Shown: piece after piece, positions 6,054 through 22,752 of the stretch
Position numbering within the stretch: the stretch's first letter is position 1
Layout of the letters: the number at the start of each line of letters is the position of its first letter
Source of the DNA: an uncultured delta proteobacterium
GTDB lineage: Bacteria > Desulfobacterota > Desulfuromonadia > Geobacterales > DSM-12255
Length of the DNA stretch: 32,089 nt
NCBI GenBank assembly: GCA_963787125.1
Contig: CAWBBV010000008.1
Coordinates: 1 to 32,089 of the forward strand
Direction: 5' to 3'
Notes under the pieces: model-generated
Told to the model about the DNA's origin: nothing
What the model saw: the letters and a program-made list of their open reading frames with translations, nothing else
The model's database searches: none
Position numbers and translations under genes: made by a program

Positions 6054-6203
6054 TGCGTATTCCGGTGAATCCGACCAAGGAAACTGACGTGATGGCGACC
6101 GGTGTTCCGCTGTGAATCCGACCAGCGTTCCGGCGAAAGCGACCAAGTGGAGTTATAGTCGCAAGGTATGGGGTGTCACAGTCTGTAGCTTAATGCCGAA
6201 TCG

Positions 6204-7051: not shown

Positions 7052-7787
7052 TCAAGTAATTGTCCGTCGCTTCCGCATAGATTCACCCTTCAGCTCGACC
7101 TTGTAGGCATTATGCACCAGCCTATCCAGAATAGCGTCAGCCAGCGTTGGGTCTTGCATGGCATCGTGCCAAGCCTTAATGGGTAACTGACTGGTAACAA
7201 TAGTCGCTTTCCGGTCGTAACGTTCCTCGACGATTTCCAGCAGTTCCCGCTGGTCATCCTGCGAGAGCGGCGAAATGAGCAGGTCATCAAGCACCAGCAC
7301 CTCGCACTTGGTCACCTGAGCCATAAGTTTCTGATAGCGACCATCGTGGCGGGCAATGGGAGATGTCCTGAAGCAATCGTGGCAGTCTCTGGTAGAGAGT
7401 TGTGTGTCCATCCCGGCACGCCTTCTGTGCCAGTGCACAGGCGAGATAACTCTTGCCAGCTCCGGTTGGTCCGGTGATGAGGATATTCTGATGGCTTCGC
7501 ACCCACTGATTCTGGGCAAGGGACATTACCTGTGACCGGTTCATACCTCGTGCATCTCTGAAGTCCAAGTCTTCGATTGATGCCGACAGGCGTAGCTTGG
7601 CAGTTCTCAGTCGATTCTGCATCCTACGGTTCTCCAGTTCTGTCATCTGGTGGTCTACAAGCAGACCAAAGCGTTCCTCAAAGGTGAGGGACGCCATGTC
7701 GGGACGTTGCATCTGCTCAGTGAATGCCTGAGCCATAGCGGTGAGCTTCATTACTTTGAGTTTCTCGATGGTCGGTTGTGTCAGCAT
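7052..7787 (-). pseudogene. istB: IstB ATPase with +1 frameshift
   Basis: GPTGAGKS in one frame and LVLDDL...DRLVHN in another. Removing one base from the GGG at 7358-7360 restores LLQDISIARHDG. Confidence 0.9.
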
Positions 7788-7800
7788 GGGGTTCCTTTGT

Positions 7801-9342
7801 TCATCCGTAATAATCCGTACCACGAATGTTATCGTGGGTAACGGTCAGCAGTTCCTGTTGTTTGGGGAGAGGTTTCTGGTCAAGGTTATTATTCAGAATC
7901 GACTTGATGCTGGCGTAACTAATCCCTTTTATGAACAGGGCACGTTCACAGGCTGCTTCCAGTCGTTCCTTGCCGAACTTTTTACCAAGGGAGATGATTC
8001 CCATACAGGAACGAAAGCCATGTTCCGCATAGGCTCTTCTGGAGAGAATGGATTCTACAACCGCCGCCGTTGCCTTGCCGGTCTGGGATGCCCAGGTGAC
8101 GAGGCGTTCCGGAGTCCACTCAGCATACTCCCGGTGGGCTGTTGGCATATGCTCGGGGTCAGTGGTGTGTTTCCCTTTTACAAACGAGCGAGGATGCGAG
8201 GCGATACGATTTCCCTTATGGAAACACTCCACAGTAGCAGACGTGTAGCGAACATCGACCTGTTCCCGTACCAGTCTGTACGGCACACTGTAGAAATGCC
8301 CTTCCACATCGACATGGTAATCAATGTGCACTCTGGCAATCTTCCATTGGGCATACTGGTAAGGGAGTTCCGGCAGTGGCAGCATTGCCGGACGGTCAAG
8401 TTCCTCGAACCGACTCTTGCGGGTACCGGGAAGTTTCCTGAAGGGACGGTTGTTCAGAAGTTCCAGCCGTTCTTTGATGGCAGCATTCGCTTCTGCCAGA
8501 CTGAAGAAGGTGTGATGTCGTAAACCGGCAAGGATGAACCGCTGCACGAACTGGACACCGGCTTCTACCTTGGGCTTGTCTCGTGGTTTGCGGACACGGG
8601 CGGGAACAACAGCGGTGCCGTAATGAGTCGCCATTTCCTGATAGGTGACATTGATGCCAGGTTCATATCGGCAGGTCTTGGTGACACCAGACAGTAAATT
8701 ATCTGGAACGAGACAATGAGGAACGGCACCGAAGTAGGAGAATGTTCTGACATGTGAACCAGTCCAATCAGCAAGGGACTGGCTCCATGTGGTTTCGGCA
8801 TAGGTGTAGTTGCTGGCTCCCATGACCGCAACAAACACCTGAGCGTCACGTATCTCTCCGGTGCTCGAGTCAACAATCGGAATAGTCTGACCACAGTAGT
8901 CCACGAACATCTTCTCGCCGGCACGATGTTCCTGACGCATGGACAGGTCGAGTTTGCCACGCCAGAACCGGAACAGGTCACAGAACTGACTGTACTGGTA
9001 ACCGGATGGCTCCCGTTCCTTATACTCTTGCCATAGAAGCATCAGCGTCAGGTTCTTGTGGGAGAGTAGTTCGTTATGCAGGGATGCCCAGTCGGGAGGT
9101 GTCCGCCTACTGGTTATGGCACGAGGATGTTGAGGATAGAGAAGGCGTTCCAGCCGTTCATCATCGAGGTCGGCTGGCAAGGGATAGGACAGACCGGCAG
9201 CAGAAGCCCGGTATAGAGTATCGGTGACGGTTGTCTTGCCGATACCGCAACTGTCGGAAATGGATTGTCTGGTCTGATTGCAAGACCAGGCAAGACGGAG
9301 TATCTCTCGGATTTTACGCATAGTAACTCGATTCTGCGGCAT
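7801..9342 (-). CDS. istA: IS21 DDE transposase IstA
   Basis: MRKIREILRL start, FVDYCG, VPDNL, DKPKVE and FYSVPY motifs. Confidence 0.95.
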   Translation of the reverse strand: MPQNRVTMRKIREILRLAWSCNQTRQSISDSCGIGKTTVTDTLYRASAAGLSYPLPADLDDERLERLLYPQHPRAITSRRTPPDWASLHNELLSHKNLTLMLLWQEYKEREPSGYQYSQFCDLFRFWRGKLDLSMRQEHRAGEKMFVDYCGQTIPIVDSSTGEIRDAQVFVAVMGASNYTYAETTWSQSLADWTGSHVRTFSYFGAVPHCLVPDNLLSGVTKTCRYEPGINVTYQEMATHYGTAVVPARVRKPRDKPKVEAGVQFVQRFILAGLRHHTFFSLAEANAAIKERLELLNNRPFRKLPGTRKSRFEELDRPAMLPLPELPYQYAQWKIARVHIDYHVDVEGHFYSVPYRLVREQVDVRYTSATVECFHKGNRIASHPRSFVKGKHTTDPEHMPTAHREYAEWTPERLVTWASQTGKATAAVVESILSRRAYAEHGFRSCMGIISLGKKFGKERLEAACERALFIKGISYASIKSILNNNLDQKPLPKQQELLTVTHDNIRGTDYYG

Positions 9343-9524
9343 TGTGACCTCCTCAAATAAATGAGGGGTACAATACGCTGTTGAGTTACCTTGCGACTAC
9401 AAACTGTTGGTCGGATTCATTCCGGAACGCTGGTCGGATTGCCAGCGGAATGTTGGTCGGTTTCAAATCGGAATAGCGGTCGGTTTCACGCCGGAATCAT
9501 GGTCGGATTCCTCCGGAATATGCA

Positions 9525-10352
9525 TACATGATCCAACAACTCTCGGCGAGGATAATCCATTGAAACCTGACTGAAATAACAGGCTCTATTGTCAAATGGT
9601 CTATAGCTGCAAACTATGAGTTTTGACTCCCAAATCTTATCATCTCTGAGGACTTTCCTCGCAGATGAAATCTGCCAGTCTCTATTGTCCTTAAGATGGT
9701 ATTTATCCTGAAAAGCATCATCTGTAATAGAGACATCATGCATATCTCGTATGCGTTTTAGAATCGTGCTTCTATCAAAATCAACAGCGAAATGATCTCT
9801 ATGCGTCTGGAAACCAAGCACATTAATAGGCATAATATCAGTAACTTTATGCCATGCGTCATACTCAACAGCCAATGTCTTGTTTTGAGGTACAAATAGA
9901 TAAAATGGTGCTTGAGGCTTCAGCTTTAACCATTCAGTAGAAGCAAGATCATTTTCCCATAACCAATGATACTTGCCACCTACAAGCTTATAATCGCTGC
10001 CGGCTTTTTCAAAGACCTCACGTTTTCCCCATAGGTCAGTAAGGTGAACAGTTGCAAGTCCTTCTCTGCTCTTGGTGCGCTTAACAAATATCCCTATTGC
10101 AACTCCCTGCATAATGTCAAAGACATTCTTATCCTCTGTACCATCTGGGCATTTCTCTTTCTTCTTGCTGTTGCCATGGAGATCAACAATATAAATATCA
10201 TCAAAGGTCTGCATTAAGCTCTGACGCATACCTCTAAAAGTAGGGTTATCTAGGTAGCCATTATTACTGATGAAAGCCAGCACACCATATCCTGTTTGTT
10301 CTATGCGCCACTGTGCAAACCTGATGAACTTTACATAATCATCATTCAACCA
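9525..10352 (-). pseudogene. Middle fragment of a type IIG/ISP-like adenine methyltransferase/restriction gene, 5'-truncated
   Basis: WLNDDYVKFIRFAQ, NNGYLDNPTFRGMR, DLHG and NVFDIMQGV motifs. The upstream FxGxG/NPPY region is absent. Confidence 0.85.
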
Positions 10353-10472
10353 TTGACTTAGAATAAATCTGCTGCAAATCCGTCTGAACGGTCCATATTT
10401 CACCGCTTTATTGGTCAATAGAACAACTGTGGTTCGTGGACATTTTATGCAGCTGAAATGATGTGTCTGCCG

Positions 10473-11240
10473 TCATCGACTTCTGAACCCGTTGCACTCC
10501 GGAAAGCCGGAGCAACCCCAGAAAGACTCGCCGGCATGGGGGCCGGTTTTGGCAGTACGCTGCCGCATCGGTTTATTGCATTTAGGACAGCCTGGGCTTT
10601 TAACGTCCGACTTGTCAGACCGGTCCGACCCGTCCGACATAGCTGCTCTTGATTCCAGCCTGGCCCTGGTCATACGCTCACGCAGGCCTCCGTGAGCGAG
10701 AAACTCCTGTTCCAGCTGGCGAATCTGCCTGCCAAGCAGACTACTGGCCTGATTGATCAGGCAGAGGAGCGTGTTGGCGACTACTTCAGCCGAGGCAGTG
10801 CGAAAGGCATAAATGTCTGACAAGTCCGACGACTTATTGTCTGACATGTCAGACTTGTCCGACCGGTCAGACATATTATCCGACTTGTCCGACAGATAAA
10901 GATTCCTGATTTCTTTCGCCTCCGGCGAATCCATCCCCCACTGGCGCAAACCGCGCTGGCGCAGAAAATCCTCATAATCCAGCAGCAGCTCCCCCAGACT
11001 GGCGCGGGCCACATTGGTCAGCTTCACTTCCATTTCCTTGGAAGTGGCCGAGGCCAGACTCCCCTCGGCGATGTTCTGCACGCCGCTCCGGGCCGCCTGC
11101 ACCATCTGGTCATGGGTGCGGGAACGCTTGTTGATAAAACGGTCGCAGAAGATAACCGTACCGTCATAGGCAAGCTGGGCCGACTGAAAACTGCGCAGCT
11201 TGCGAAAACCGCCATGCTGAGGGATAAAACCTGTTGTCAT
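10473..11240 (-). CDS. Four-helix-bundle protein with suffix domain and C-terminal topoisomerase-type C4 zinc finger
   Basis: DQMVQAARSGVQNIAEG, ARASLGELLLDYEDFLR, GGLRERMTRAR and CPKC...FWGCSGFPEC. Confidence 0.88.
   Translation of the reverse strand: MTTGFIPQHGGFRKLRSFQSAQLAYDGTVIFCDRFINKRSRTHDQMVQAARSGVQNIAEGSLASATSKEMEVKLTNVARASLGELLLDYEDFLRQRGLRQWGMDSPEAKEIRNLYLSDKSDNMSDRSDKSDMSDNKSSDLSDIYAFRTASAEVVANTLLCLINQASSLLGRQIRQLEQEFLAHGGLRERMTRARLESRAAMSDGSDRSDKSDVKSPGCPKCNKPMRQRTAKTGPHAGESFWGCSGFPECNGFRSR
10605..10640. repeat. Four tandem 9-bp units GTCNGACNN
   Basis: gtccgactt gtcagaccg gtccgaccc gtccgacat, encoding SDx repeats. Confidence 0.9.
10815..10895. repeat. Cluster of about eight GTCNGACNN units
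   Basis: Palindromic heptamers encoding SDKSDNMSDRSDKSDMSDNKSSDLSD. Confidence 0.9.
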
Positions 11241-11264
11241 ATCAGAAACAGCCCCCTTTCATAA

Positions 11265-13097
11265 CTAGGCCACGGCCTGCTCGACAATGGTGTCGGCAAG
11301 GTGGATCTGGGTGGTTTGGGCGGCAGCGAGGCGCGCCTTGAGGGCGTCGCAGAGGGTCATGAGTTCGTTAACTTTGGCGACGATGCGGTGTTGCTCGGCG
11401 AGAGGGGGAATCGCAAATACAAATTGAGACATCTTGGTTGCATTGACATTTGGAACACCTACCGAAGTAGTATTCAAGCCAAGATAGCTTTGACCAAGCG
11501 GGCTCATTAACATTAACAATGTATATTCAGACGACATAGCCTTTGGTAGTCGAACGCGAATTAAATATGCGCTTGGGATTGCAATAATATCCAAATCATA
11601 AATTGCCATCGTTCCAATACTTCCAGATCTCGTGATTATCAAGTCACCTTTTTCTAGTCCATAAAGTGATAGTTTCGATTTATCTACCAGAACCTCTGGC
11701 GGGTCTTTCAAACAAATTTTCCCATCAGCAGTCATATCGGTTGTTCGTATTGTCGGATAACCTCCTTGGGCAACATACTCATCACTAGCAAATCGCGGTC
11801 CATAAAATGAATCATTCCAAACTGTTCCAAAACGACTCCACTCCCAGCCAGCCGGTAATTCATGAGGTATTTCTTCTATACCTATTTCCGGCAAAGGTTT
11901 CTCTTTTTTCAACAGTCCTTTGCTTATCAACAGCGTCTTTTCCTCAGCGATCTTCTCCAACAACACGCTTGCCGGCTCATCATTCGGCTCTTGCGGAACA
12001 AGTTTCCCCATAACAGCAAGCTGAAGAATAGTTTGTTTGAGCTGGTCGATGCTCTGTTCGGTGGTGAACAGGGTGTCGAAGTGGTTGGCGATGCGGGTCC
12101 AGTTCTCATCAAATTCCGTTAGCCCTGAGCCCATACTCCGTTCACCCTGAGCCTGTCGAAGGGTGTTGGGGCGTGCTTCGACAAGCTCAGCACGAACGGG
12201 GGCGTTGGTGAGTGTACCGAGCAGGATTTCGACCAGGGTTTGGTGGGCTTCGATGTTGTTGGTTTGTTGTTGTTCCAGTTGGTCGCACAGGGCCATGAGT
12301 TCATCGACTTTGGCGACGATGCGGTGTTGTTCTGCGAGAGGGGGCACAGGAAGAACTAAACTATTTAAATCACCCAGCGATACGTTGGGCATTGCTCCAC
12401 CACGGGCTTTTGCCCTTGTGGCTTCTGCCACAAAGGAATCCAACTGGATTAGCAGATATCTAGTATCAAATACTGTTGATGTGCCTCTTATTATTGCAAG
12501 AGCTTGATTCGTATTGGCCGGCAGGTCTTTTCCATAAACGATGCAAGTCTTGCCAATGGTTCCAGCAATTGAGAAAAGCACATCACCTTCTGCAAGCTGA
12601 GACCGTTCAAGAGCTTGATTTGTTTCTTTGTCGATGAACTGAGAAATTGTATCGCCTTGGATTTGCCCACGGTCAATATTCTCAATCTTTACAAAAGAAA
12701 CTCCTGAATCAACATACGCATATCCTAAAGACGTTGGAGTCGTCCCTTTAGTAATCAAATGAGAGACTGCCCCTAATCGTTCAACAGACCAATTGGTTGG
12801 GAGTACAAACGGTAGCTCATCAATAGTTATAGGATGAAGTTCTTTCTGTCTTCCAATCTCCCCTTTTTTGACGAGATGCGATTTTCCATTTGCGCTTCTT
12901 TCCAGTAAATAACATGCTGGTTCATCGCTTGGATCTTGCGCCACCAATTTCCCCCGCACCGCCAGCTCAAGAATCAACTCCTGCAGTTTCTTAATCCCAT
13001 ACGCTTCCACTCTGCCGCCACTCCCCCGGCCAGCAGTAGATTTGCTAAGCAGCGCCGAACTCCAGAGATCGATATTGTCGGTAATAACATCAGGCAT
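11265..13097 (-). CDS. hsdS: Type I R-M specificity subunit
   Basis: Two TRDs each followed by PPLAEQHRIVAKV(D/N)ELM. Lies directly downstream of hsdM. Confidence 0.95.
   Translation of the reverse strand: MPDVITDNIDLWSSALLSKSTAGRGSGGRVEAYGIKKLQELILELAVRGKLVAQDPSDEPACYLLERSANGKSHLVKKGEIGRQKELHPITIDELPFVLPTNWSVERLGAVSHLITKGTTPTSLGYAYVDSGVSFVKIENIDRGQIQGDTISQFIDKETNQALERSQLAEGDVLFSIAGTIGKTCIVYGKDLPANTNQALAIIRGTSTVFDTRYLLIQLDSFVAEATRAKARGGAMPNVSLGDLNSLVLPVPPLAEQHRIVAKVDELMALCDQLEQQQTNNIEAHQTLVEILLGTLTNAPVRAELVEARPNTLRQAQGERSMGSGLTEFDENWTRIANHFDTLFTTEQSIDQLKQTILQLAVMGKLVPQEPNDEPASVLLEKIAEEKTLLISKGLLKKEKPLPEIGIEEIPHELPAGWEWSRFGTVWNDSFYGPRFASDEYVAQGGYPTIRTTDMTADGKICLKDPPEVLVDKSKLSLYGLEKGDLIITRSGSIGTMAIYDLDIIAIPSAYLIRVRLPKAMSSEYTLLMLMSPLGQSYLGLNTTSVGVPNVNATKMSQFVFAIPPLAEQHRIVAKVNELMTLCDALKARLAAAQTTQIHLADTIVEQAVA
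12138..12199. repeat. REP-like hairpin inserted in frame in hsdS
   Basis: 24-bp arms ccgttcaccctgagcctgtcgaag / cttcgacaagctcagcacgaacgg (20/24 complementary). Same family as 14612-14638 and 14992-15018. Confidence 0.9.
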
Positions 13098-13099
13098 AA

Positions 13100-14578
13100 T
13101 TACGCCTCACCCCGGTGCAACGCCTGATGCAGAATATCCTTTAGCTGGCTGCGAACATCGGCAATCCCCTGTTGCTGCTCCTGATACAGCCGCAGCAGTT
13201 CATCGGGATCATGGCTGATCTGCTCGCCCACATGGGGGTTCTTGATGTCCAGGTTGTAGTTGCGGGCGATGATGTCGGCGACCGGCACCTTCCAGGCCTG
13301 CTCGGTCGGCACGCGGGCGGCAAAACCGTCGGCCTCACTCCCCCACCAGTCGATTTCGGTCTGGAACTCCTCGAAGCGCATCGGCTTGGTTTTGTTGTAG
13401 TTCTTGACCCCTGCCGGATAGGGGTGCTCGTAATACCAGACATGCCTGGTGGGCTGGCCCTTGGTGAAGAACAGCAGGTTGGTCTTGATGCCGGTGTAGG
13501 GGTTGAAGACCCCGTTGGGCAGCCGCACGATGGTGTGCAGGTTGCACTCTTCCAGTAGCGCCTGCTTGAGGCGGGTTTTCATCCCTTCGCCGAAGAGGAA
13601 ACCGTCGGGCAGCACCACGGCGGCGCGCCCCTGGACCTTGAGCAGTTTGATGATCAGCGCCAGAAACAGGTCTGCAGTTTCGCGGGTGCGGAAGTTGGCG
13701 GGAAAGTTGTTCTCGATACCGTCTTCTTCCATGCCGCCGAAGGGGGGATTGGTAACGATGACGTTGACCCGGTCGGCGTTGCCGTGGTCCTTGTAGGGGC
13801 GGCTCAGGGTGTTGTCATGACGGATATTGGTGGGAGTGTCGATGCCGTGGAGGATCATGTTGGTGACGGCCAGCATGTGGGGCATGGCCTTTTTCTCCAC
13901 GCCGCGGATGGAGGCAACCACGGTCTCTTCGTCTTCCCTGGTTTTGACGTAATGCTCGCGCTTGTGGTCGATGGTACAGGTGAGGAAACCGCCGGTGCCG
14001 CAGGCAGGGTCGAGCACGATGTCGTCCAGCTGGGGATCTACGCGATTGACGATGAAGCGGGTGACGGCGCGGGGGGTGTAGAACTCGCCCGCATTACCGG
14101 CGCTCTGCAGGTCGCGGAGGATCTGCTCGTAGATGCTGCCGAAGGTGTGACGGTCACCGCTGTTGTTGAAGTCGATTTCGCTGATCTTGTTGATCACCTG
14201 GCGCATCAGCGTGCCGGACTTCATATAGTTGTAGGCGTCCTCAAAGACGTTGCGCACCACTTTGGCGCGCTCACCTGCCGGGCCGTGGATGACCAGTTTA
14301 TCCTTTAATGTGGGGAAGAGCTGGCTGTTGACGAAGTCCGACAGGGCGTCGCCGGTAATCCCCTCGGAGTCCTTTGCCCAGGACCGCCAGCGCAGCGCCT
14401 CCGGCAGTGGTGATTTGTAGTTGTCTTCCAGCAGCTCCAGTTCGGATTCGCGGTCGTCGAAGATTTTGAGAAAAAACATCCAGACCAGCTGGCTGATCCG
14501 CTGGGCATCGCCGTCAACGCCCACATCCTTGCGCATAATGTCTTGTATGGATTTGATGATACCGGAAACATTACTCAT
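13100..14578 (-). CDS. hsdM: Type I R-M N6-adenine methyltransferase
   Basis: GEFYTPR, DPACGTGGF and NPPF motifs. Confidence 0.97.
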   Translation of the reverse strand: MSNVSGIIKSIQDIMRKDVGVDGDAQRISQLVWMFFLKIFDDRESELELLEDNYKSPLPEALRWRSWAKDSEGITGDALSDFVNSQLFPTLKDKLVIHGPAGERAKVVRNVFEDAYNYMKSGTLMRQVINKISEIDFNNSGDRHTFGSIYEQILRDLQSAGNAGEFYTPRAVTRFIVNRVDPQLDDIVLDPACGTGGFLTCTIDHKREHYVKTREDEETVVASIRGVEKKAMPHMLAVTNMILHGIDTPTNIRHDNTLSRPYKDHGNADRVNVIVTNPPFGGMEEDGIENNFPANFRTRETADLFLALIIKLLKVQGRAAVVLPDGFLFGEGMKTRLKQALLEECNLHTIVRLPNGVFNPYTGIKTNLLFFTKGQPTRHVWYYEHPYPAGVKNYNKTKPMRFEEFQTEIDWWGSEADGFAARVPTEQAWKVPVADIIARNYNLDIKNPHVGEQISHDPDELLRLYQEQQQGIADVRSQLKDILHQALHRGEA

Positions 14579-14599
14579 TTATGGAATCCTGAAATTAAT

Positions 14600-14914
14600 T
14601 TAGTTGCCATACCGTTCGCCCTGAGCCAGTCGAAGGGCGTTTTGCGCCAAACGCGAGACTTCGTTCCAGTCGCCGCGCATCATGGCTTCTTTCTTTCTTC
14701 TGCTCCAACCTTTTATCTGGCGCTCTGCTGCAAGCGCCTCTTCTCTGGTTGATAGTTCCTGGGAAAAGACTATCTCTATGGGCAAACGTGTTGCCGTATA
14801 ACAATTCGGAAATGTTTTACCTTTATGCTGCGCTATGCGCATTTCCAAATTGTCTGTGTGTCCTGTGTAGTAGCTGCCATCATGGCATTTCAATATGTAG
14901 ACCCAAAAGCCCAT
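14600..14914 (-). CDS. Small stand-alone GIY-YIG nuclease (UPF0213-like)
   Basis: VYILKC.DGSYYTGHT.NL..R..QH and EALAAERQIKGWSR.KK. Confidence 0.92.
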   Translation of the reverse strand: MGFWVYILKCHDGSYYTGHTDNLEMRIAQHKGKTFPNCYTATRLPIEIVFSQELSTREEALAAERQIKGWSRRKKEAMMRGDWNEVSRLAQNALRLAQGERYGN

Positions 14915-15018
14915 TTGTTTGTACCTGCTTTACGTATGCTATCCGTTTGTGGTGAGCTGTGAGCGTGTCGAACAGCGAACCATGAACGGATGCCCTTCGA
15001 CGAGCTCAGGGCGAACGG
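14612..15018. repeat. 27-bp inverted repeats (14612-14638, 14992-15018) bracketing the GIY-YIG gene, plus internal hairpin 14941-14991
   Basis: ccgttcgccctgagccagtcgaagggc versus the reverse complement ccgttcgccctgagctcgtcgaagggc (25/27). Confidence 0.9.
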
Positions 15019-15053
15019 CTTTTGTCTAAGTTACTTTTGCTAAATTCTGATTC

Positions 15054-17405
15054 TCATGCTGCACCTTCCTGTCTAAACAACTCGTGCTCCAGCTCCTGGA
15101 TGGCTTTGTCGAAACCATCCTTGCCGCCAAAGATGTTGTTGATGATTTCCACGGGGGTACCCATGGTTTTAAACGGGTCCAGACGCAGGACCTTGGCACT
15201 TTCCAGCGTGCCGACACCTTCATCGGCGTATTTGTCCAGCAGGGCGGTGAGTACGGCCCTGGCTTGTTCACCGTATTTAGTGAAGTAGTCGCGCTTTTTG
15301 ACCTTGTTAGCCCGCTCTTTACGGGTGAGCGGCGGCTGGCCGTAGGCAATATGGCAGATGAGGTCGAAATCGCCAAACTCCTTGCCAACCTCTGCAGCCA
15401 GGTTGGCAAGGATAATGCCATGCTCTTCCAGTTCATCGATGATGGCCTGTTTTTTCGTGGCGCCGTGCCAACGCTGCAGAAACTCATCAAGGGAAGCATA
15501 CTCGGCCTGAATCTGCTTGCGGGTGAAATCCTTATAGGATTCGGTAATGAGTTTGCCATCCATGTAGTAGGAAATGTGCTCGGCGATGATTCTGGCCGCT
15601 ACGCCGCTGACACGGATTTTTACGACTCCTTCGCCGGTATCGTCGCCCCCTTCGTCATCATTACCATCATCTGGTGGCGGATCGGGCGGCACTGGATCGT
15701 CGCCATCACCGGGTTCGTAGATCACCACCGGTTCACCATCAAAATCCGGATCACGGAACAGTTCGGTGGCCTTTTTAAAGTCCATGATGGTGAAGAACCA
15801 CTTGTTATTCTCTTCATCAATGCGGGTGCCGCGACCAATGATCTGCTTGAAAGTGGTCATGGAGCGGATGGTTTTATCCAGGACGATGAGCTTGCAGGTC
15901 TTGGCATCGACACCGGTGGTCAAAAGCTCCGAAGTGGTAGCGATGACCGGAAACCGGCTTTCCGGGTCGATGAAATTATCAAGCTCCGCCTTCCCTTCGA
16001 CGCTGTCGCCGGTGATCCGCATGACATATTTGGGGTTATCCAGGGCAATCTGTCCGGCGACGTTGACTATGGCGACGCGCATCCGCTCGGCATGGTCGAT
16101 ATCTTCGCAAAAAATAATGGTTTTGGAGAAAATATCGGTAGCTCGTAGATACTGCATGACCCGGTTGGCTACCAGTTTGGTGCGCTGATTCAGCACCAGC
16201 AGGCGGTCCATGTCTTTCTGGTTATATTCGCGCTGCTCAATCTCCTGGCCGAGGTCATCTTTCATCCCCGGCGACGGCGTCCAGCCGTGGATATCCTTGT
16301 CGATATCAATCCGCACGACTTTGTACGGCGCAAGAAAGCCGTCTTCAATCCCCTGCTTGAGACTGTAGGTATAAACCGGTTCTCCAAAGTAGGTGATGTT
16401 GGAAACGTATTCGGTTTCTTTCGGTGTGGCGGTGAGGCCGACTTGCACGGCACCGGAGAAATAGTCGAGGATTTCACGCCAGGCGGAATCATCCGCTGCG
16501 CTCCCCCGATGGCACTCGTCGATGACAATCATGTCGAAAAATTCACGCGAGACGTTCTTGAAAATCTTGTCTTCTTCATCGGGGCCGGTGATGGCTTGAT
16601 AAAGTCCCAGATAGACTTCGTAGGCCGGGTCGATCTTGCGGTTTTTGATCTTGGTCATGACCGAGCCGAAAGGTTTGAAGTCATTGACGAGGGTTTGGTC
16701 GACGAGAATGTTTCTGTCTACCAGGAACAGAACCCTTTTGACAGCACCGGCCTTCCACAACCTCCAGATAATCTGGAAGGTTGTATAGGTTTTACCGGTA
16801 CCGGTGGCCATAACAAGCAGTACGCGCCTTTGGCCACTGGCTACAGCCTCAACCGTTCGGTTGATGGCCTCAACCTGATAATAGCGGGGCTCTTTGCCGG
16901 AGAGGTCTTCATGGTAGGGTTGCACGACCAGTTTTTCCGCATCATCTTTGATGCCTCGAAACGTTTTATAACGCTGCCACAATTCTTGCGGTGGTGGAAA
17001 TGCTTCAAGGGGGAATTCCGTCTCGATATCTTCGCCTGCAACAGGGACCTTGTTGTGCGAGGCAAAGGCATCACCATTGGAACTGAAGGCGCTTGGCAGT
17101 TCAAGAATTTCCGCATAGCCGAGAGCCTGTTGCATACCGTGGCTGACAGTGTGATTATTGTCTTTGGCTTCAACGATGGCAAGGGGCACGCCCGGTTCCC
17201 AAGACAGGACATAATCAGCAAATTTCTTCTTTTTCTTGTTACGCGCGGACAGATTGCCGCGGACGATAACCGGACCGGGTGTGAGAGTCACTTCCCAGCG
17301 AATCTGCTTCATCGGGTCCCAGCCAGCGTTCTGTATCGCCGGGGTAATGAACAGATTGCAGATATCCGTTTCGCTCAGCTCTTTTTTCTCTTTGCTATTC
17401 AGCAT
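15054..17405 (-). CDS. hsdR: Type I restriction subunit, EcoAI/EcoEI-like
   Basis: ADY...VEAK nuclease motif, MATGTGKT, DECH and QIIGRGTR helicase motifs, EcoEI-like C-terminus. Confidence 0.96.
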   Translation of the reverse strand: MLNSKEKKELSETDICNLFITPAIQNAGWDPMKQIRWEVTLTPGPVIVRGNLSARNKKKKKFADYVLSWEPGVPLAIVEAKDNNHTVSHGMQQALGYAEILELPSAFSSNGDAFASHNKVPVAGEDIETEFPLEAFPPPQELWQRYKTFRGIKDDAEKLVVQPYHEDLSGKEPRYYQVEAINRTVEAVASGQRRVLLVMATGTGKTYTTFQIIWRLWKAGAVKRVLFLVDRNILVDQTLVNDFKPFGSVMTKIKNRKIDPAYEVYLGLYQAITGPDEEDKIFKNVSREFFDMIVIDECHRGSAADDSAWREILDYFSGAVQVGLTATPKETEYVSNITYFGEPVYTYSLKQGIEDGFLAPYKVVRIDIDKDIHGWTPSPGMKDDLGQEIEQREYNQKDMDRLLVLNQRTKLVANRVMQYLRATDIFSKTIIFCEDIDHAERMRVAIVNVAGQIALDNPKYVMRITGDSVEGKAELDNFIDPESRFPVIATTSELLTTGVDAKTCKLIVLDKTIRSMTTFKQIIGRGTRIDEENNKWFFTIMDFKKATELFRDPDFDGEPVVIYEPGDGDDPVPPDPPPDDGNDDEGGDDTGEGVVKIRVSGVAARIIAEHISYYMDGKLITESYKDFTRKQIQAEYASLDEFLQRWHGATKKQAIIDELEEHGIILANLAAEVGKEFGDFDLICHIAYGQPPLTRKERANKVKKRDYFTKYGEQARAVLTALLDKYADEGVGTLESAKVLRLDPFKTMGTPVEIINNIFGGKDGFDKAIQELEHELFRQEGAA

Positions 17406-17639
17406 AAGATATCCTGTAAAGAAGTTTTACTGTGGCCGCATTAAATCTTAACGGGGAATGTATAACCAGATAATAATCGGCTATCTTGTTATATTTCTGC
17501 CTTTAGAAGACAGCTGACTCATACTCTCCCCTACCCCCGCCGTAAAAAGCGGCACGTTTAAGGCAATTATGAAAAATGAAGTATGAACTATTTAAAGGAC
17601 TTTATTTCATCGGCAGCTTTCACCTGTTTTAAATCATAA

Positions 17640-17659
17640 AATTCCCGCCGGCGGGAATT
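17640..17659. repeat. Perfect 20-bp palindrome AATTCCCGCCGGCGGGAATT (candidate protein-binding site)
   Basis: Zero-spacer perfect inverted repeat, 65 bp past the parB-like stop. Confidence 0.8.
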
Positions 17660-17724
17660 CGGTCTTAAGTGGCTGTTTTATAACAGTTCACCTCGAAAAA
17701 CAGCCTAAATTTTTGCACCTTATA

Positions 17725-18501
17725 TCACTTGAGCAGTTTGATCTTTTGATAAGCCACGCCACGCAGTTTGGTCAACTCAATCAGCATGGTTGCCTTCTGG
17801 TCGGCGTCCAGCCTGCTGTAATCCAGCGTATCAAGCTTTTCGCTCCATGAGGGCAGAAAGGAGATATCCGGCGGCGCGTCTGCAGGTTTCGGTTTGGCTG
17901 TCTGCTTTCTGATTTCACCACGGGTAAGGCCGCTCTCTTTGTACTTAGCGTAGAGGGCAATCATCTTTGCCGGGGTTTTCAGTTTGGCAATTTCCACCAG
18001 AATGCTCCGGTTTACTTTTGGATCGTTGCGGCAATCATCCTTTACTTCAGCCGGCAGACGGTTCAAGGAGAGAATCGCTGAGATAGCTGTGTCTGACTTA
18101 CCAAGCGCTGTGGAAAGTTCACTCAGGCCGTAATCATGAATCGCCCGCAGCCGCTCAATCCCCTCTGCCTCTTCAATGGCAGTCAGATTTTCCCGCAGCA
18201 GATTTTCAATGATGGAAATCTCTGCCGGTTCACCGTCGGTGATTATAGCCGGGACACTTTCCAGTCCGGCATTGCGGGACGCCTGATAGCGGCGCTCGCC
18301 GGAAACAATGATAAACTTGCCACCCTCCCCTTCCCGCACCAGTATCGGCTGGAGCACACCATGACTGGCGATTGACGCCGCCAGTTCAGCTAATGCCTGC
18401 TCATCGAAGAATTTACGCGGCTGTTCCGGATCGGGACTGAGCTGAAACATGCTCAGTTGGTAAAGCTTGCCTTTCTCATAACTCGATTGATTATCTGCCA
18501 T
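17725..18501 (-). CDS. ParB/Spo0J-family protein
   Basis: QPRK.F, LQPILV, GERRYQA, ENLLRENL motifs followed by an HTH. Confidence 0.92.
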   Translation of the reverse strand: MADNQSSYEKGKLYQLSMFQLSPDPEQPRKFFDEQALAELAASIASHGVLQPILVREGEGGKFIIVSGERRYQASRNAGLESVPAIITDGEPAEISIIENLLRENLTAIEEAEGIERLRAIHDYGLSELSTALGKSDTAISAILSLNRLPAEVKDDCRNDPKVNRSILVEIAKLKTPAKMIALYAKYKESGLTRGEIRKQTAKPKPADAPPDISFLPSWSEKLDTLDYSRLDADQKATMLIELTKLRGVAYQKIKLLK

Positions 18502-18719
18502 AACATACCCTCACTGGAATTATCTTGAGTAAAGTTCTAAGCGCCAAATCTTTTGTCCACGAAACACACGAAAACACACGAAAACACACGAAAGAAATCT
18601 AAAACCTTTTTCTGGATAAAACCGGAGCTGTTGCTGTCTGTTGAATCAAAACCTTGAATCGCTTTAGATCGGTTTGTTCGTGTATTTTCATGTCGTTCGT
18701 GGATAAAGCCTTTCCTGCT

Positions 18720-19100
18720 TCACAGGACTATTCTTTCAACAGTTGCTTTTTGCTGGCAACCGAAATTCACCAGCAGTCCAAGCCTCAAATCAGTGGCCTT
18801 CAGGTAATTCAATACCTGGGAACGATGCTCACCGGAAAGATCGCGCAGAGCCTTCAACTCGACGATAATCTTGTCATAACAGATGATGTCCGGTTTGTAC
18901 GTCTGCTTCTACACTTCGCCCTTATAAAACAGCTTCAGCTCCTGCTGGGCAATGAAAGGTACCCCTCTTCTCCGGAACTCCTTTTCAAGACATTCCTGAT
19001 AGACCGCTTCGAGAAATCCGCAGCCCAGTTCGCGGTAAACCTCGAAGATTGCCCCCTGAATGGCATAACATTCATCCCTGAAGAGTAATTCGTTTTCCAT
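18720..19100 (-). pseudogene. GxxExxY protein (PD-(D/E)xK-like) with in-frame TAG at 18911-18909
   Basis: LGCGFLEAVYQECL. The frame continues past TAG as KQTYKPDIICYDKIIVELKA...QVLNYLKATDLRLGLLVNFG to TGA at 18722-18720. Confidence 0.9.
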
Positions 19101-19121
19101 TTTTAGTGTCCTTTTGCTGAC

Positions 19122-19167
19122 AAAAACAAAAAAGCCGCTCCACCGGCTATTTCCGGTACAGCGGCTT
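19122..19167 (-). terminator. Intrinsic terminator-like hairpin just upstream of the GxxExxY start
   Basis: AAGCCGCT...AGCGGCTT stem with inner ACCGG/CCGGT, followed by TTTTGTTTTT. Confidence 0.7.
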
Positions 19168-19224
19168 GCAGTCATCTACCAAACATCCACGCCATCACTC
19201 ACTCCATAAAAAAAGGTGGCTCAC

Positions 19225-19251
19225 ATTATAACGCCAGCAGCATAGTGTCAA
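19225..19251 (-). promoter_or_regulatory. Sigma70-like promoter TTGACA-15 bp-TATAAT
   Basis: Both hexamers are perfect consensus, but the spacer is shorter than optimal. Confidence 0.5.
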
Positions 19252-19401
19252 TTAATTAGAGTCAGTGAACGGAATAAGGATAAAAGCGAGGCATTTGCTT
19301 TCTGTTGAATCAAAACCCTGAACCGCTTTGGATCGGCTTGTTCGTGTATTTTCGTGTTGTTCGTGGACCAGCGTCTTTAAATATTTAACAATTCAAACCT
19401 G

Positions 19402-20643
19402 TCAGACGTGAGCGACATGGAGTTTTTTCGCCACCTGCCGGTCAATGACATACATCATACCGAGGGTGAACAGCATGGAGCAGACGGTAAGGTAGCCGAT
19501 GACATTGTAATGCTGCAGCGGTGCATTTTTAGCAGGCTGGTAGACAATTAGTCCGGCAACGAAAGCGGCAATCCCTCCTGAAATCTGCTGGATCGACGAG
19601 TTTATCCCCATGTACGCCCCCCGGTCCGTCAGGTTCGGGATTCCCGAAATCAGCGCCGAAGAAGAGATCATACGTGATGATATCCCTATCCAGAGAATGG
19701 TATTGGTCAGCATCACAACCCAGATGGGGTTAGGCCCAAGATTGGTGTAGACGACTACCATGGCCATGGAAAGGATGCTGCCGACAATAAACATCCGGTA
19801 CTTGCCGAACCTGTCAGTCAGCCTCCCCAGGAGCGGGCCTGTAAAAATAGAGACCATTCCGGTGACAAGGAAGATCAAAGACAATTCTGTTTCCGGAATA
19901 AGGACGTTGTTGACGAGAAATGCACTGCTGAAAGGCATGATCATGAACCCGCCGGTGGCGAGCAGCAGCGTTGCCGTGAAGCCTTGCAGATAATAGCGAT
20001 TCGAAGCGGTCTGCCAGATGTGCGAGAAGGCGCTTTTTTTGTCAGGTTTGCCCTGGAGGTGACCGGTGACCGGTTTTAGTTTCAGGGCGATGGCAATCCC
20101 GACCAGCATGGCAATGGCGGCTATCATCAGGAATGTGGCGTGCCAGCTGATACGGGTTGCCAGATAAAGGCCGATGGGAATACCGAGCACCTGGCTGGCT
20201 GAAAAAGCCATCTGCACAAATCCCATGACCCGGCCGCGGACTTCCATCCTGAATATGTCGGTTATAATCGCAAAAGAGATTGAGCCGATCACGCCGCCAA
20301 ATATCCCGGTGACAATCCTTGCCCAGAGCAGCGCCGGGTAGCTGTTGGCAATGCCGCAGAATAATGTGCCGAGAACAAAACCGACATAGAAGAAGAGCAG
20401 CATCTTCTTTCGATCGAACCTGTCGGCAAAGCCGGCAGCGCAGACCCCGGAAGCTCCGGCACTGAACGCGTAGGCGGATACCAGCAGTCCGAATTGAGAG
20501 GTGGAGATTCCTAACTCCGGCATCAGGATGGCTCCAAGCGGTGATAGAACCATGAAGTCAACGATGACGGTGAATTGAAGAAAAGCGAGAATCGCAATGA
20601 CGAATTTTTCGTAAGGCGTAAAGATGTGCCTGGGACTGTTCAA
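19402..20643 (-). CDS. MFS transporter (DHA1-like)
   Basis: About 12 hydrophobic segments, motif A GFADRFDRK, and RGRVMG. Confidence 0.93.
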   Translation of the reverse strand: MNSPRHIFTPYEKFVIAILAFLQFTVIVDFMVLSPLGAILMPELGISTSQFGLLVSAYAFSAGASGVCAAGFADRFDRKKMLLFFYVGFVLGTLFCGIANSYPALLWARIVTGIFGGVIGSISFAIITDIFRMEVRGRVMGFVQMAFSASQVLGIPIGLYLATRISWHATFLMIAAIAMLVGIAIALKLKPVTGHLQGKPDKKSAFSHIWQTASNRYYLQGFTATLLLATGGFMIMPFSSAFLVNNVLIPETELSLIFLVTGMVSIFTGPLLGRLTDRFGKYRMFIVGSILSMAMVVVYTNLGPNPIWVVMLTNTILWIGISSRMISSSALISGIPNLTDRGAYMGINSSIQQISGGIAAFVAGLIVYQPAKNAPLQHYNVIGYLTVCSMLFTLGMMYVIDRQVAKKLHVAHV

Positions 20644-20660
20644 TGGTGACCTTATATTTT

Positions 20661-21539
20661 TTAGCGCTCGGCTGATTTTCTTCTGACGACCAGACTTATG
20701 GCGGCAAAGTCAGCTTCGCCCAGGCCGCAGGCAAGTGCCTGCTTATACAGTTCGTTATTGGCAGCAGTGGTGAACAGCGGTTGTCCGACTTCTTCACCAA
20801 GCCGGAGAGCGAGGCGCAGATCCTTCTGCATATGCTTGAGAGGAAATGCTGGCGGAAATTCACTGTTGGCTGCCATGACAGGGCCTTTGAGGCGGAACAT
20901 GGGGTTGGCGACAGCGCCTGAATCAAGAATCTCAAGCAGTTGGGAAAGATCAAGCCCGCTCCCCTCTGCCAGAGCCATCCCCTCGGCCAATGCGGTCAGC
21001 ATGCCCCCCATGACAAGATTGTTGGCGAGCTTCATCCGGGCGGCGTTGCCTGCCTCACCAAGAAAGAGAATTTTTTTACCCATTGCTGCCAGTACAGAAT
21101 GTGCCTGGTCATACAGCTCCCTGTCGCCTGCTGCCATAATCGTCAAGGTGCCGTCTTCGGCAGGTTTTCTGCTACCTGCTACCGGAGCTTCCAGAAAGAG
21201 CGCCCCCATTTCCCTGGCCAGACTGGCTGACGTCATTGATGTTTCAGGGTCAACCGTCGACAGATCGATGTAGCCTTTACCAGGGGCAAGACCTGCTATG
21301 ATGCCATTACTGCCGTCGCGCACCGCCTCGACTGCAGCGGGTGTTGCCATCATGGCACAGATAATATCAGCCGACTCTGCGGCGCTGCGGGGTGACGTAG
21401 CAATCACAGCTCCTGCGGCAGCCAGCGGCCCACATTTATCAAGAGAGCGGTTCCATACTGTCAGGTGGTGTCCGGCTTTGAGCAGGTTGACTGCCATTGC
21501 GCTCCCCATGATTCCCAAACCTATAAAGCCGATGTTCAT
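20661..21539 (-). CDS. NAD(P)-dependent beta-hydroxyacid dehydrogenase family (glyoxylate/succinic semialdehyde reductase-like)
   Basis: GFIGLGIMG, WNRS, EAPVAGS, MKLANN and KDLRLA motifs. Confidence 0.92.
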   Translation of the reverse strand: MNIGFIGLGIMGSAMAVNLLKAGHHLTVWNRSLDKCGPLAAAGAVIATSPRSAAESADIICAMMATPAAVEAVRDGSNGIIAGLAPGKGYIDLSTVDPETSMTSASLAREMGALFLEAPVAGSRKPAEDGTLTIMAAGDRELYDQAHSVLAAMGKKILFLGEAGNAARMKLANNLVMGGMLTALAEGMALAEGSGLDLSQLLEILDSGAVANPMFRLKGPVMAANSEFPPAFPLKHMQKDLRLALRLGEEVGQPLFTTAANNELYKQALACGLGEADFAAISLVVRRKSAER

Positions 21540-21765: not shown

Positions 21766-22123
21766 TGGTGGAGGTGAGGGGAATCGAACCCCTGTCCGAA
21801 AGTCATACGCCCAAGGCTTCTACATGCTTGTTTCAGTGTTTAGATTTAGCAGTTATTGTCTCCACTGAACAGGATACTCAAACCACGATCCTCTTTTGAT
21901 TTCGCTTTCCCGCCAAAGGCATACGGGGAAACTATCTCGAGTAAATGACGTCCATTCCTAACCCCCGAGAAGAGCGCGGATGGACGGTAACAGGGTATTA
22001 AGCTGCTACAGCGTAATCATAATTGTCGGCATTTAAAGCCGTGCGGGTTTTTTAACGAGGCCAACCCACATCCTCGGCATGCAACCTTTTGCTTCCTACC
22101 CCCGTCGAAACCTTTACACCCCC
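21766..22123 (-). ncRNA. ssrA: tmRNA
   Basis: 5' GGGGGTG pairs with 3' CACCTCCACCA (G3-U wobble), T-arm GGTTCGATTCC. Tag ORF ADNYDYAVAA* at 22030-21998. Adjacent to smpB. Confidence 0.97.
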
Positions 22124-22627
22124 AAAAAATATTAGATCATTACGTTTACAGGTCAAGGCTGAACTCACCACTTCCCTTTGTCTGCCCTTGAGTGCCTGGG
22201 CAATATCCCGTTTGCTATCCTTCTCTTTCATGTCTTCCCGCTTGTCATACAGCTTTTTCCCTTTTGCCAAACCCAGCTCTGCTTTTACCAGTCCGTCCTT
22301 GAAGTAGAGTCGCAGCGGAATAACAGTATACCCCTGCTCCCGTATTTTACTGTAGAGTTTAATGATCTCTTTTTTGTGCAGCAGAAGCTTTCTTGCTCTG
22401 TCGGCATCGTGGTTCGACCTGTTACCAAACTCATAAGGGGAGATGTGCAGGTTATTGAGAAAGGCCTCTCCAGTTTTAATCTGAGCGAAAGCGTCATTAA
22501 GATTAGCTTTACCCATCCTGAGAGATTTCACTTCAGTACCGGTCAATACCAAGCCGGCTTCAAACTTTTCCTCAACAAAGTAGTCGTGGTAAGCTTTCTT
22601 GTTGTTGCAGATCAGCTTTTCGCCCAT
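22052..22627 (-). CDS. smpB: SsrA-binding protein (true 3' end probably ~22166; frame as given runs into tmRNA)
   Basis: [33 protein letters not shown] and GKKLYDKR motifs. Confidence 0.95.
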
Positions 22628-22752
22628 AATTAGATAGTAGCAAATGCGGCTCTCTGGATACAATGTAAATCTGACCAGTGCAGCTATTATCCGCGTTATG
22701 CTGCGATTTTCTTTTTCGGTGGTACGCTTATGCCAAGTCATACGGAGGTGCG

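Follow-up and report, generated by a model that had tools for sequence, protein, structure and literature searches.

The window, as we call the whole stretch of DNA analysed here, is the entire contig C8 (32,089 bases) of the genome of an uncultured delta proteobacterium; this genome, G000, amounts to 4.2 Mb in 30 contigs, which are given C numbers, while other genomes have G numbers and compared loci L numbers. On the minus strand of the window lies a restriction-modification (R-M) operon of the EcoAI type, in the order hsdR, GIY-YIG gene, hsdM, hsdS and four-helix-bundle gene, and a parB-like gene (18501..17725) and a GxxExxY gene (19100..18726) are located on the other side of hsdR. The core of the operon consists of hsdR (15054..17405, minus strand; NF046051, 1129 bits), hsdM for the methylase subunit (13100..14578, minus strand; PF02384, E 1.1e-77) and an intact hsdS for a specificity subunit of 610 residues (11265..13097, minus strand; PF01420, E 2.9e-27). 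A first-pass annotation had proposed that the three small genes are hairpin-delimited mobile cassettes, each paired with its own palindromic repeat and driven by proteins other than HUH nucleases. Our analysis partly supports this interpretation. It is probable that the stretch holds cognate protein-repeat modules which were brought in horizontally and are passengers here; that the three families form one mechanistic class seems doubtful.

Each of the three small genes is indeed found beside a repeat family of its own. Chance expectations were obtained from 100 dinucleotide-preserving shuffles of the window and were 0.00 for all three repeat types, against 7 window matches for the pattern GTCNGACNNGTCNGAC (GTCNGAC type, four-helix-bundle gene), 4 for the palindrome core CTGAGCNNGTCGAAG (CTGAGC..GTCGAAG type, GIY-YIG gene) and 5 for CACGAA(N3-4)CACGAA (GxxExxY gene), so that chance is rejected and the observation is real. 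Shuffles and reversed-pattern controls together rule out a chance origin of the repeats; for the palindrome core the reversed pattern gave at most 3 matches per genome. As had also been noted, Pfam and NCBIfam scans detect no transposase in the 10.4-19.4 kb part of the window, the nearby IS21 element (7801-9342) being located outside it.

The GIY-YIG gene (14600..14914, minus strand) encodes a single-domain nuclease of 104 residues in which PF01541 (E 6e-17) spans residues 3-75; no further domain is present in the Pfam and NCBIfam scans, and the closest solved relatives are the UPF0213 proteins 1zg2 (E 1.6e-13) and 1ywl. The gene is placed between two inverted arms of 27 nt each, which are 93% complementary and separated by 353 nt. 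The 3'-side arm (14612..14638) covers the last codons and the stop codon of the gene and thereby codes the final residues of the protein, and the 5'-side arm is at 14992..15018. Gene and arms belong to a 474-bp insert (14579..15052, minus strand) between hsdR and hsdM, which was delimited by comparison with empty operons. A metagenome scan with HsdM yielded 80 related operons (62-90% identity), in 70 of which both gene ends are visible. The gap between hsdR and hsdM is 54 bp or less in 49 of these 70 operons, compared to 478 bp in the window, and the tblastn matches to the two genes overlap by one base in 24 operons. GCATGAGTAATG, exact or slightly varied, is the sequence at all of the closest 19 junctions inspected, where the stop codon of hsdR overlaps or abuts the start codon of hsdM. 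Since hsdR and hsdM overlap in related operons, the window insert has a documented empty site, and cassette-free alleles of this operon, as expected under the first-pass interpretation, do exist. Direct repeats of the 5 bp ATGAG (minus strand, 15057..15053 and 14578..14574) flank the insert and restore the hsdR stop plus the hsdM start.

A second cassette of this kind is present in L183, a locus with an HsdM 87% identical to that of the window. Its GIY-YIG cassette (76% identical) is located at another junction, hsdM|hsdS, and the DNA similarity to the window insert is limited to the two arms and the gene, which indicates that the shared unit is arm-gene-arm. The segments of about 33 nt outside each arm of the window insert have no match among the fetched loci or in G000. 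The same layout is found in four of the six close-homologue loci (L045-L048), and the arms co-vary within a unit, both being CTGAGGCTCTCGAAG in L045 and both CTGAGGTATCGAAG in L048. Among 30 GIY-YIG homologue loci, inverted arms exceed the shuffled controls in only 8, namely the window, four of the six close homologues, two at 42% identity and a marginal one. In the phylum, the 15-nt core CTGAGCNNGTCGAAG occurs in 112 of 401 genomes in a very patchy manner (top counts 275, 222, 124, 81, 79, 79 and 68), and 167 of the 401 contain matches to the window protein (E 1e-5 or better). Close homologues (64-74% identity) occur in six genomes besides G000, from six different families, and all six are among the 14 genomes with at least 25 core copies. 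From these comparisons, the small GIY-YIG clade of the window has a cognate palindrome, and the wider family in the phylum does not obviously have one.

Gene-less copies of the repeats, which the first-pass interpretation would lead one to expect, exist and are numerous in some genomes. One of them lies in the window itself, within hsdS. Comparison with orthologues reveals a 72-bp in-frame insert, PVRAELVEARPNTLRQAQGERSMG (12129..12200, minus strand), which adds 24 residues to the central conserved region and contains a gene-less 63-bp palindrome (12138-12200) of the CTGAGC..GTCGAAG family. The insert folds as single-stranded DNA at -21.6 kcal/mol (z -4.4). The 24 residues are missing from most of the HsdS orthologues listed, such as those of L228, L195, L185, L191, L199, L203 and L197; the closest relatives, L181 and L183, are the only ones among those listed with related palindrome-coded inserts at the same HsdS site. 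The simplest reading is that these inserts derive from one older insertion and have since diverged. With the GIY-YIG insert, the hsdS palindrome makes two insertions in the window that are visible against empty alleles. The claim that repeats enter coding sequence without breaking the frame is borne out by the HsdS insert, by the C-terminal codons of the GIY-YIG gene and by the four-helix-bundle open reading frame (ORF).

Several further occurrences of the palindrome or of its parts were observed. In L044/L152 (G005:C23), a GIY-YIG gene (69% identical) that has its palindrome comes immediately after a bundle-suffix gene (see below), and the ORF downstream of this GIY-YIG gene in L044, read by eye, resembles the start of hsdS; two of the three families are thus neighbours in another R-M operon. 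Exact 15-nt halves of the CTGAGC..GTCGAAG core occur at L018 (G375:C77, around position 1501), L016 (around 234) and L017 (around 1501). By Rfam matches, these halves lie in a 16S rRNA gene, some 90 nt short of its 3' end, and in two cobalamin riboswitch aptamers, and they may be insertions or chance matches. In G000, a CTGAGCTTGTCGAAGG core with CCGTTC-type flanks lies within a 930-residue ORF at C6:79780-79860 and may be a worn in-frame copy of the palindrome. Thirty loci from the palindrome pattern search were mostly single matches in repeat-poor genomes and are uninformative. Many short contigs of one DNA run match the palindrome arms only and then continue into unlike sequence; some contigs of that run are identical to pieces of the window, a comparison too weak to address habitat, copy number or empty sites.

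The GxxExxY gene (18726..19100, minus strand; TIGR04256 and PF13366) belongs to the PD-(D/E)xK nucleases and reaches 139.6 bits with TIGR04256 (cut-off 35) when read through one TAG. As this codon (18909-18911) is in frame, the window copy is a pseudogene as it stands, which corrects the first-pass annotation, the catalytic D, E and K being retained in its translation. An outer inverted arm with four CACGAA on the plus strand is located at 18556..18594. Two copies of a 75-bp direct repeat (90% identity over 42 nt) follow, the first (18628..18702) ending in the arm 18672-18702 and the second (19296..19368) in the upstream arm 19338-19368. The gene had been described as lying between inverted arms. 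An inverted partner does exist at 18556-18594, but the arm upstream of the gene repeats the first downstream arm in direct orientation, and the direct-repeat copy that contains it is separated from the start codon by about 196 bp of other sequence. A similar division applies to the inner arm or hairpin that the two nuclease cassettes were thought to share: the downstream hairpin of the GxxExxY gene (18556-18594 with 18672-18702) is significant (-25.6 kcal/mol, z -3.4), but the inner partner in the GIY-YIG cassette (about 14950-14980) is decayed and the fold of 14945-15025 is not significant (z -1.0).

Two minor features accompany this gene. A terminator-like hairpin (19121-19178) is present between the displaced upstream arm and the GxxExxY start, and four copies at 86-92% identity (C16:15096, C6:222510, C24:58948 and C4:1419) mark it as a small repeat family distinct from the others. 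The word that ends the GxxExxY arms, GTTCGTGGAC, occurs singly at 10443-10452, 20 bp past the four-helix-bundle stop and 8 kb from the GxxExxY unit, about 0.06 such matches being expected by chance in the window.

A much clearer picture of the GxxExxY arms is obtained from other genomes, where repeat families accompany their cognate genes as had been anticipated. A scan of one genome per species gave 79 loci at 64-86% identity, in Geobacter, Pelobacter, Desulfuromonadaceae, Gallionella, Methylobacter, Bacteroidia, Planctomycetes, Verrucomicrobia, Leptospiraceae and one archaeal bin; this level of identity across phyla points to horizontal transfer. The hexamers CACGAA/TTCGTG occur at 12.0 per kb within 300 bp of the gene and at 0.80 per kb farther away. 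In the commonest form, an arm of GTC-CACGAA-NNN-CACGAA-NNN-CACGAA abuts the start codon and its mirror image follows directly after the stop codon. Reading frames are clean in 76 of the loci, the others having an internal stop (L079 and L082) or a range that overruns the stop (L090). When the sister words CACGGAA and CGCGAA are included, 51 of the 76 usable loci have arrays in inverted orientation on both sides of the gene, 24 have them one-sided or otherwise arranged and 1 lacks them, and in 50 of the 51 two-sided loci the commonest word is identical on both arms. No variation is seen at D71, E81, K83 or the G..E..Y motif across 65 aligned sequences. A sequence search of solved structures found no relative for the GxxExxY protein. 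Its structural model, which is a confident one (pLDDT 94), is nearest to the Cas4 protein SSO0001 (E 1.2e-4, TM 0.58), followed by another Cas4, RecE/lambda-type exonucleases and Hjc resolvases.

Filled and empty sites are also available for this family. One pair concerns the hsdR|hsdM junction, which is empty in L240 and in L242 is occupied by a GxxExxY gene with an arm of three CGCGAAG on either side; the flanks of the two loci are 93.5% and 96% identical, with differences over roughly the final 35 nt of hsdR and in the spacer that precedes hsdM. In G255, three cassettes that are mutually 96% identical are located among toxin-antitoxin genes, and two of them share an extra 130-bp fragment, read from its ORF translation as the 3' end of a vapC-like gene, giving 609 bp in total at 94.6% identity. 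Judged from these alignments, both cases look like movement together with flanking DNA.

Within G000, the best evidence comes from GxxExxY paralogues outside the window. The genome has six GxxExxY genes. Inverted arrays of their own 9-bp words enclose three of the five that lie outside the window (inverted-repeat scores 20.5-33, shuffle maxima 10-13); a fourth is a marginal case, and the fifth has arrays in direct orientation. CACGGAT, the word belonging to the C7 paralogue, is found in G000 as 45 arrays (control 0), which make up 22 hairpins of 86-173 bp. Fifteen of these hairpins, about 100 bp each, are in tandem clusters (C7:230316-233768) around the gene at C7:231086-231430, and the other 7 are dispersed on C1, C11, C16, C7 and C9. 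For the C24 paralogue, whose word is GCGGAT, 20 arrays were counted (control 0), among them five gene-less hairpins on other contigs and a 459-bp pair that encloses the gene.

The four-helix-bundle gene (10473..11240, minus strand; TIGR04258, TIGR02436 and PF01396) encodes a protein of 255 residues which consists of an N-terminal bundle, an SDxSD linker, a suffix domain, a second SDxSD stretch and a C-terminal Top1-type zinc ribbon. The suffix domain is supported by TIGR04258 (75.3 bits, cut-off 40, residues 151-199), the bundle by TIGR02436 (25.5 bits, cut-off 24, residues 37-86) and the zinc ribbon by PF01396 (E 1.9e-7), and PF05635 scores 22.7, under the Pfam threshold of 33.8. No relative was found for this protein in a sequence search of solved structures. 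The GTCNGAC arrays assigned to the gene are present, but they bracket a domain inside the ORF, where they translate as SDxSD, and not the whole gene. Array 1 (10605..10638) has four units at a 9-bp period on the 3' side of the suffix segment, array 2 (10815..10895) has about eight units in the bundle-suffix linker, and the suffix-domain segment between them (10644..10790, minus strand) measures 147 bp or 49 residues. Array 2 is strongly self-complementary, the fold of 10810-10900 reaching -20.1 kcal/mol (z -5.35) with none of 200 shuffles as good; array 1 (10600-10645) gives z -1.7. This geometry, with arrays around modules of one ORF, is unlike both nuclease cassettes. An 82%-identical orthologue occupies the same place after hsdS in L182, with fewer units in both arrays, and the gene therefore looks inherited with the operon and not newly inserted.

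The suffix domain is present in 36 of 301 genomes (35 of 300 without G000). Triple GTCNGAC arrays occur in 8 of the 300 other genomes, 7 of which have the suffix domain compared to 35 of 300 overall, and in 5 of these array-bearing genomes the arrays adjoin the domain. Where suffix-domain loci lack GTCNGAC arrays, they have plain linkers or linkers with a 9-bp period in other words (TGGAC/GTCCA, CCTAT). At least three exact repeats at 9-bp spacing are found in 9 of 30 linkers and 5 of 30 post-suffix stretches, and in none of 29 control stretches inside the bundle (29 of the 30 loci being long enough). A second bundle-suffix gene of G000 (C1:78394-80700) is in a type I operon, placed between hsdS and hsdR according to the translations of flanking ORFs. 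Its bundle module has inverted GTCCA arrays at either side, and the gene is split within the linker by an IS3-like element (79316-80517, read from two ORFs). GTCNGAC arrays are found outside genes as well. G093 has 31 matches per strand, including gene-less intergenic blocks between transporter genes, and an intergenic spacer of G000 holds a 30-nt perfect GTCNGAC palindrome (C4:12895). The GTCNGAC association is real but holds for only a subset of the family.

It had been suggested that such units colonise R-M loci. An hsd homologue is found within about 4 kb in 19 of the 79 GxxExxY loci, which is an enrichment and, with the window proteins as queries, probably an undercount. However, the three families are a small minority at hsd junctions. 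A Pfam search of the gaps in the 80 related operons, covering 140 ORFs, detected mostly other cargo (RhuM/Fic, YhcG/DUF1016, SIR2-like, Mrr-like, HipA-like, Abi_2 and toxin-antitoxin pairs), together with one GIY-YIG gene, one PDDEXK_3 gene (a second by tblastn, L252) and two four-helix-bundle genes. Given this variety, hsd junctions are general landing places of which the three families are minor users. Both rRNA intervening sequences and hsd contexts are reportedly mentioned in the NCBI notes on these families.

Repetitive extragenic palindromic (REP) sequences are mobilised by RAYT HUH nucleases. As far as the available parts of the REPtron and REPIN literature describe them (PMC3116915, PMC5581495, PMC8266576), such elements resemble the modules studied here in that inverted copies of a palindromic repeat stand on both sides of a single small gene, and in that the repeats, which are of family-specific sequence, also occur gene-less and are sometimes clustered. 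They differ in that the arms of the GxxExxY and four-helix-bundle genes consist of at least three direct words at a 9-bp period and not of a hairpin tagged with GTAG or CGTC. No HUH/Y1 protein is detected in the region with Pfam and NCBIfam, the folds being GIY-YIG, PD-(D/E)xK and four-helix bundle, and the words of the window have few copies in G000, in contrast to the many of other G000 GxxExxY paralogues and of other genomes. The replaced flanks of filled sites suit recombination better than transposition in the manner of REPtrons, and the analysis gives no support to the idea that the proteins mobilise the repeats.

A closer parallel exists for the GIY-YIG gene. The gene of SsnA, a GIY-YIG protein of 94 residues, is flanked by hairpin repeats next to which this nuclease cuts single-stranded DNA, and the accompanying survey gives at least one repeat in 71% of homologue regions and repeats on both sides in 42% (Chenal et al. 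2025, Nat Commun, PMC11893778). In their Discussion, these authors already liken the repeat-gene-repeat layout to insertion sequences and REP/RAYT, and the REP/RAYT-like idea for GIY-YIG proteins is therefore a published one. SsnA loci also serve as a benchmark in a preprint, according to the portion available (10.64898/2026.09.22.753630). The window shares with this system, as the accessible text presents it, a GIY-YIG-only protein of about 100 residues, a gene flanked by its own palindromic repeat and a tendency of repeat-rich genomes to carry the gene. Unlike in Ssn, the window gene lies between the halves of one palindrome and not between complete hairpins. The rows inspected for Geobacter, Desulfuromonas and Pelobacter in Supplementary Data 4 of PMC11893778 give no enrichment of the SRM motif (0.70-1.05-fold), with a cd10448 homologue only at the weaker criterion in 3 of 6 such rows, and the core words GTCGAAGG and CCTTCGAC are absent from all 12 supplementary files searched, out of 14. 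The GIY-YIG pair of the window is of the Ssn kind but outside the published definition. In the literature searched, mostly at the level of titles and abstracts, no paper was found that links GxxExxY or suffix-domain four-helix-bundle proteins to repeats, and the PDDEXK_3/PF13366 papers found there deal with classification only.

Features of insertion sequences and miniature inverted-repeat transposable elements are present as well: the 27-nt terminal inverted repeats, the 5-bp direct repeat at the one delimited GIY-YIG insertion and a gene-less copy that resembles two joined ends. Such elements differ from the cassettes, which have no known transposase; about 33 nt of unrelated DNA lie outside each GIY-YIG arm within the insert, and other filled sites have replaced flanks and are not clean insertions. 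Integron cassettes were considered and set aside, as the Pfam scans of the window show no integrase and the arms consist of direct words unlike attC sites as generally known.

Taken together, we consider that a module would consist of a small DNA-acting protein and short words that build either inverted arms or palindromic arrays, the words being stepped by 9 bp or having lengths divisible by three. The three proteins would be a single-domain GIY-YIG nuclease, a minimal Cas4/RecB-like PD-(D/E)xK nuclease of the GxxExxY family and an Avd-like four-helix bundle with its suffix. Most likely, each protein would recognise its own words, either as a folded single-stranded hairpin or as an array on duplex DNA, and the two nucleases probably cut there, as Ssn does at hairpin repeats; cutting is suggested for the GIY-YIG protein by the analogy with SsnA and for the GxxExxY protein by its fold and invariant active site. 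Gene and arms would travel together between genomes, and gene-less hairpins, which could arise by loss of the gene between the arms or by copying, would multiply in permissive genomes. The replaced flanks at filled and empty pairs suggest entry by recombination that drags flanks along over a clean cut-and-paste event. At this locus, a type I R-M operon would have been acquired horizontally and three independent protein-plus-cognate-repeat modules then added to it. The three modules of the window are regarded as passengers because their words are nearly confined to it, the GxxExxY gene is broken and its upstream arm displaced, and the inner arm of the GIY-YIG cassette is decayed. We would put forward only tentatively that each fold, independently or through a common scaffold, evolved into a minimal selfish unit, in which the gene sits in the hairpin loop of its own recognition words, stepped by three codons, the protein reads these words, and hairpin recombination spreads the unit into operon junctions, structured RNAs and reading frames.

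Several findings weigh against cognate modules of this kind. A genome-wide count, which the first-pass annotation had proposed as a check, places 7 of 9 GTCNGAC matches, 4 of 5 palindrome cores and 5 of 6 CACGAA matches of G000 inside the window; with its three word types nearly absent elsewhere in the genome, the locus bears no sign of within-genome spread. The idea that repeat abundance tracks the protein family fits the six genomes with close GIY-YIG homologues, but 8 of the 14 palindrome-rich genomes have only distant GIY-YIG homologues or none, and two of the palindrome-rich genomes, G072 and G109 (90% and 92% complete), have no match to the protein at E 1e-5. Strict CACGAA is tracked poorly too, since the genomes richest in it (G072, G223, G185 and G141) have distant homologues of the window GxxExxY protein or none at E 1e-20, and it is adjacency and not genome totals that carries the GxxExxY case. 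The 21 remoter GIY-YIG homologues (37-49% identity) lack convincing inverted arms, and the degenerate SRM motif as published has 0 matches on either strand of the window (shuffle mean 0.2), for which reason the GIY-YIG pair was not classed as an ordinary Ssn/SRM member. The ATGAG repeat is a single case for which selection on the stop and start codons is an alternative cause, and L183 has no such repeat. Lastly, GTCNGAC arrays are found in only 4 of 30 suffix-domain loci, always beside the suffix segment, and those of the window are located within the ORF.

The most serious competing explanation, which we nevertheless consider unlikely, places the repeats at the level of RNA. The arms would form an RNase III-cut stem that loops the gene out of the transcript, the proteins would be unrelated to the arms, and insertion into operons, rRNA and coding regions would thereby be tolerated. 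A stem, a small ORF and a second stem make up the 23S rRNA intervening sequences, which have a four-helix-bundle ORF between complementary ends and are regarded as selfish, according to the abstract of PMC4990558. The ORF of these sequences (S23p/PF05635; Coxiella, Leptospira) belongs to the same four-helix-bundle superfamily as ours, but the window genes are in an hsd operon and the arrays bracket a domain inside the ORF. The cassettes are located within polycistronic operons, precisely at gene junctions, their arms co-vary with pairing preserved, and multiples of three and in-frame copies can be read as host tolerance, all of which suits an RNA stem. What an RNA stem leaves unexplained is that the words are specific to a clade or paralogue, that three direct words at a 9-bp period are used and not just any complementary sequence, and that gene-less hairpins cluster around the cognate gene. 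The RNA stem can be compatible with cognate modules.

It is less probable still that the small genes are accessory or regulatory parts of the restriction system, the genes being defence cargo and the repeats serving as operators, terminators or transcript stabilisers without being parts of mobile units. Many accessory genes do occupy the hsd junctions of the 80 related operons, the 19 GxxExxY loci near hsd genes and both four-helix-bundle copies of G000 are associated with type I operons, and direct words one helical turn apart resemble operator sites. However, the same cassettes are found outside R-M loci, among toxin-antitoxin genes in L074 and L271 and, in L081, upstream of an ORF read by eye as a BREX-type gene; 60 of the 79 GxxExxY loci have no hsd homologue nearby, gene-less hairpins occur far from any such gene, and the closest relatives of the operon work without the inserts. 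Coincidence, with the arrays as protein linkers and the palindromes as unrelated REP-like host elements near genes, is very improbable: GTCNGAC arrays do read as SDxSD linkers, vary in unit number between orthologues like ordinary tandem repeats and are replaced by plain linkers in many suffix-domain genes, but the shuffle expectation of 0.00 for three patterns and the occurrence of GTCNGAC arrays outside genes (G093; C4:12895) oppose it, and the association of gene and repeat across genomes and phyla largely refutes it.

If the reading as cognate modules is extended to one class, it would define a superclass of non-HUH REPtron-like elements, and it would explain rRNA intervening sequences as well as the palindrome-coded peptides that litter metagenome proteins. 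PF13366/TIGR04256 and the four-helix-bundle 'intervening-sequence' proteins are very large families of no known function, and the rule of a clade's own word repeated three times in inverted arms makes the pairing of protein and word directly and cheaply testable. Should the proteins read these words, they would provide a natural collection of small DNA binders and nucleases, specific for sequence or structure, of the kind that has been proposed for Ssn. The locus also offers natural experiments, in operons with and without the cassette and in a palindrome tolerated in frame in HsdS, and so does G000, where an inert immigrant copy exists beside paralogues with thriving hairpin populations; these bear on the origin of repeats and on the tolerance of gene-dense operons to insertion.

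The remainder of the window provides the setting of the operon. A plasmid origin was considered and rejected, as a distant BLAST search of 17500-20700 against 72,556 plasmids gave no match. The sole Rfam match of the window is a tmRNA gene (21766-22123, minus strand) with the tag peptide ADNYDYAVAA, which overlaps the start of the annotated smpB ORF (22052-22774). The left third of the window contains two IS21 copies (10-2309 and 7052-9342, istB of the second being split) and an IS630-like transposase (2933-4003). A Type ISP restriction enzyme is present in two separated pieces (5227-6078 and 9486-10418), which look like a decayed defence gene disrupted by insertion sequences. The R-M stretch to the left of the tmRNA gene, rich in such sequences, looks like a defence island beside ssrA.

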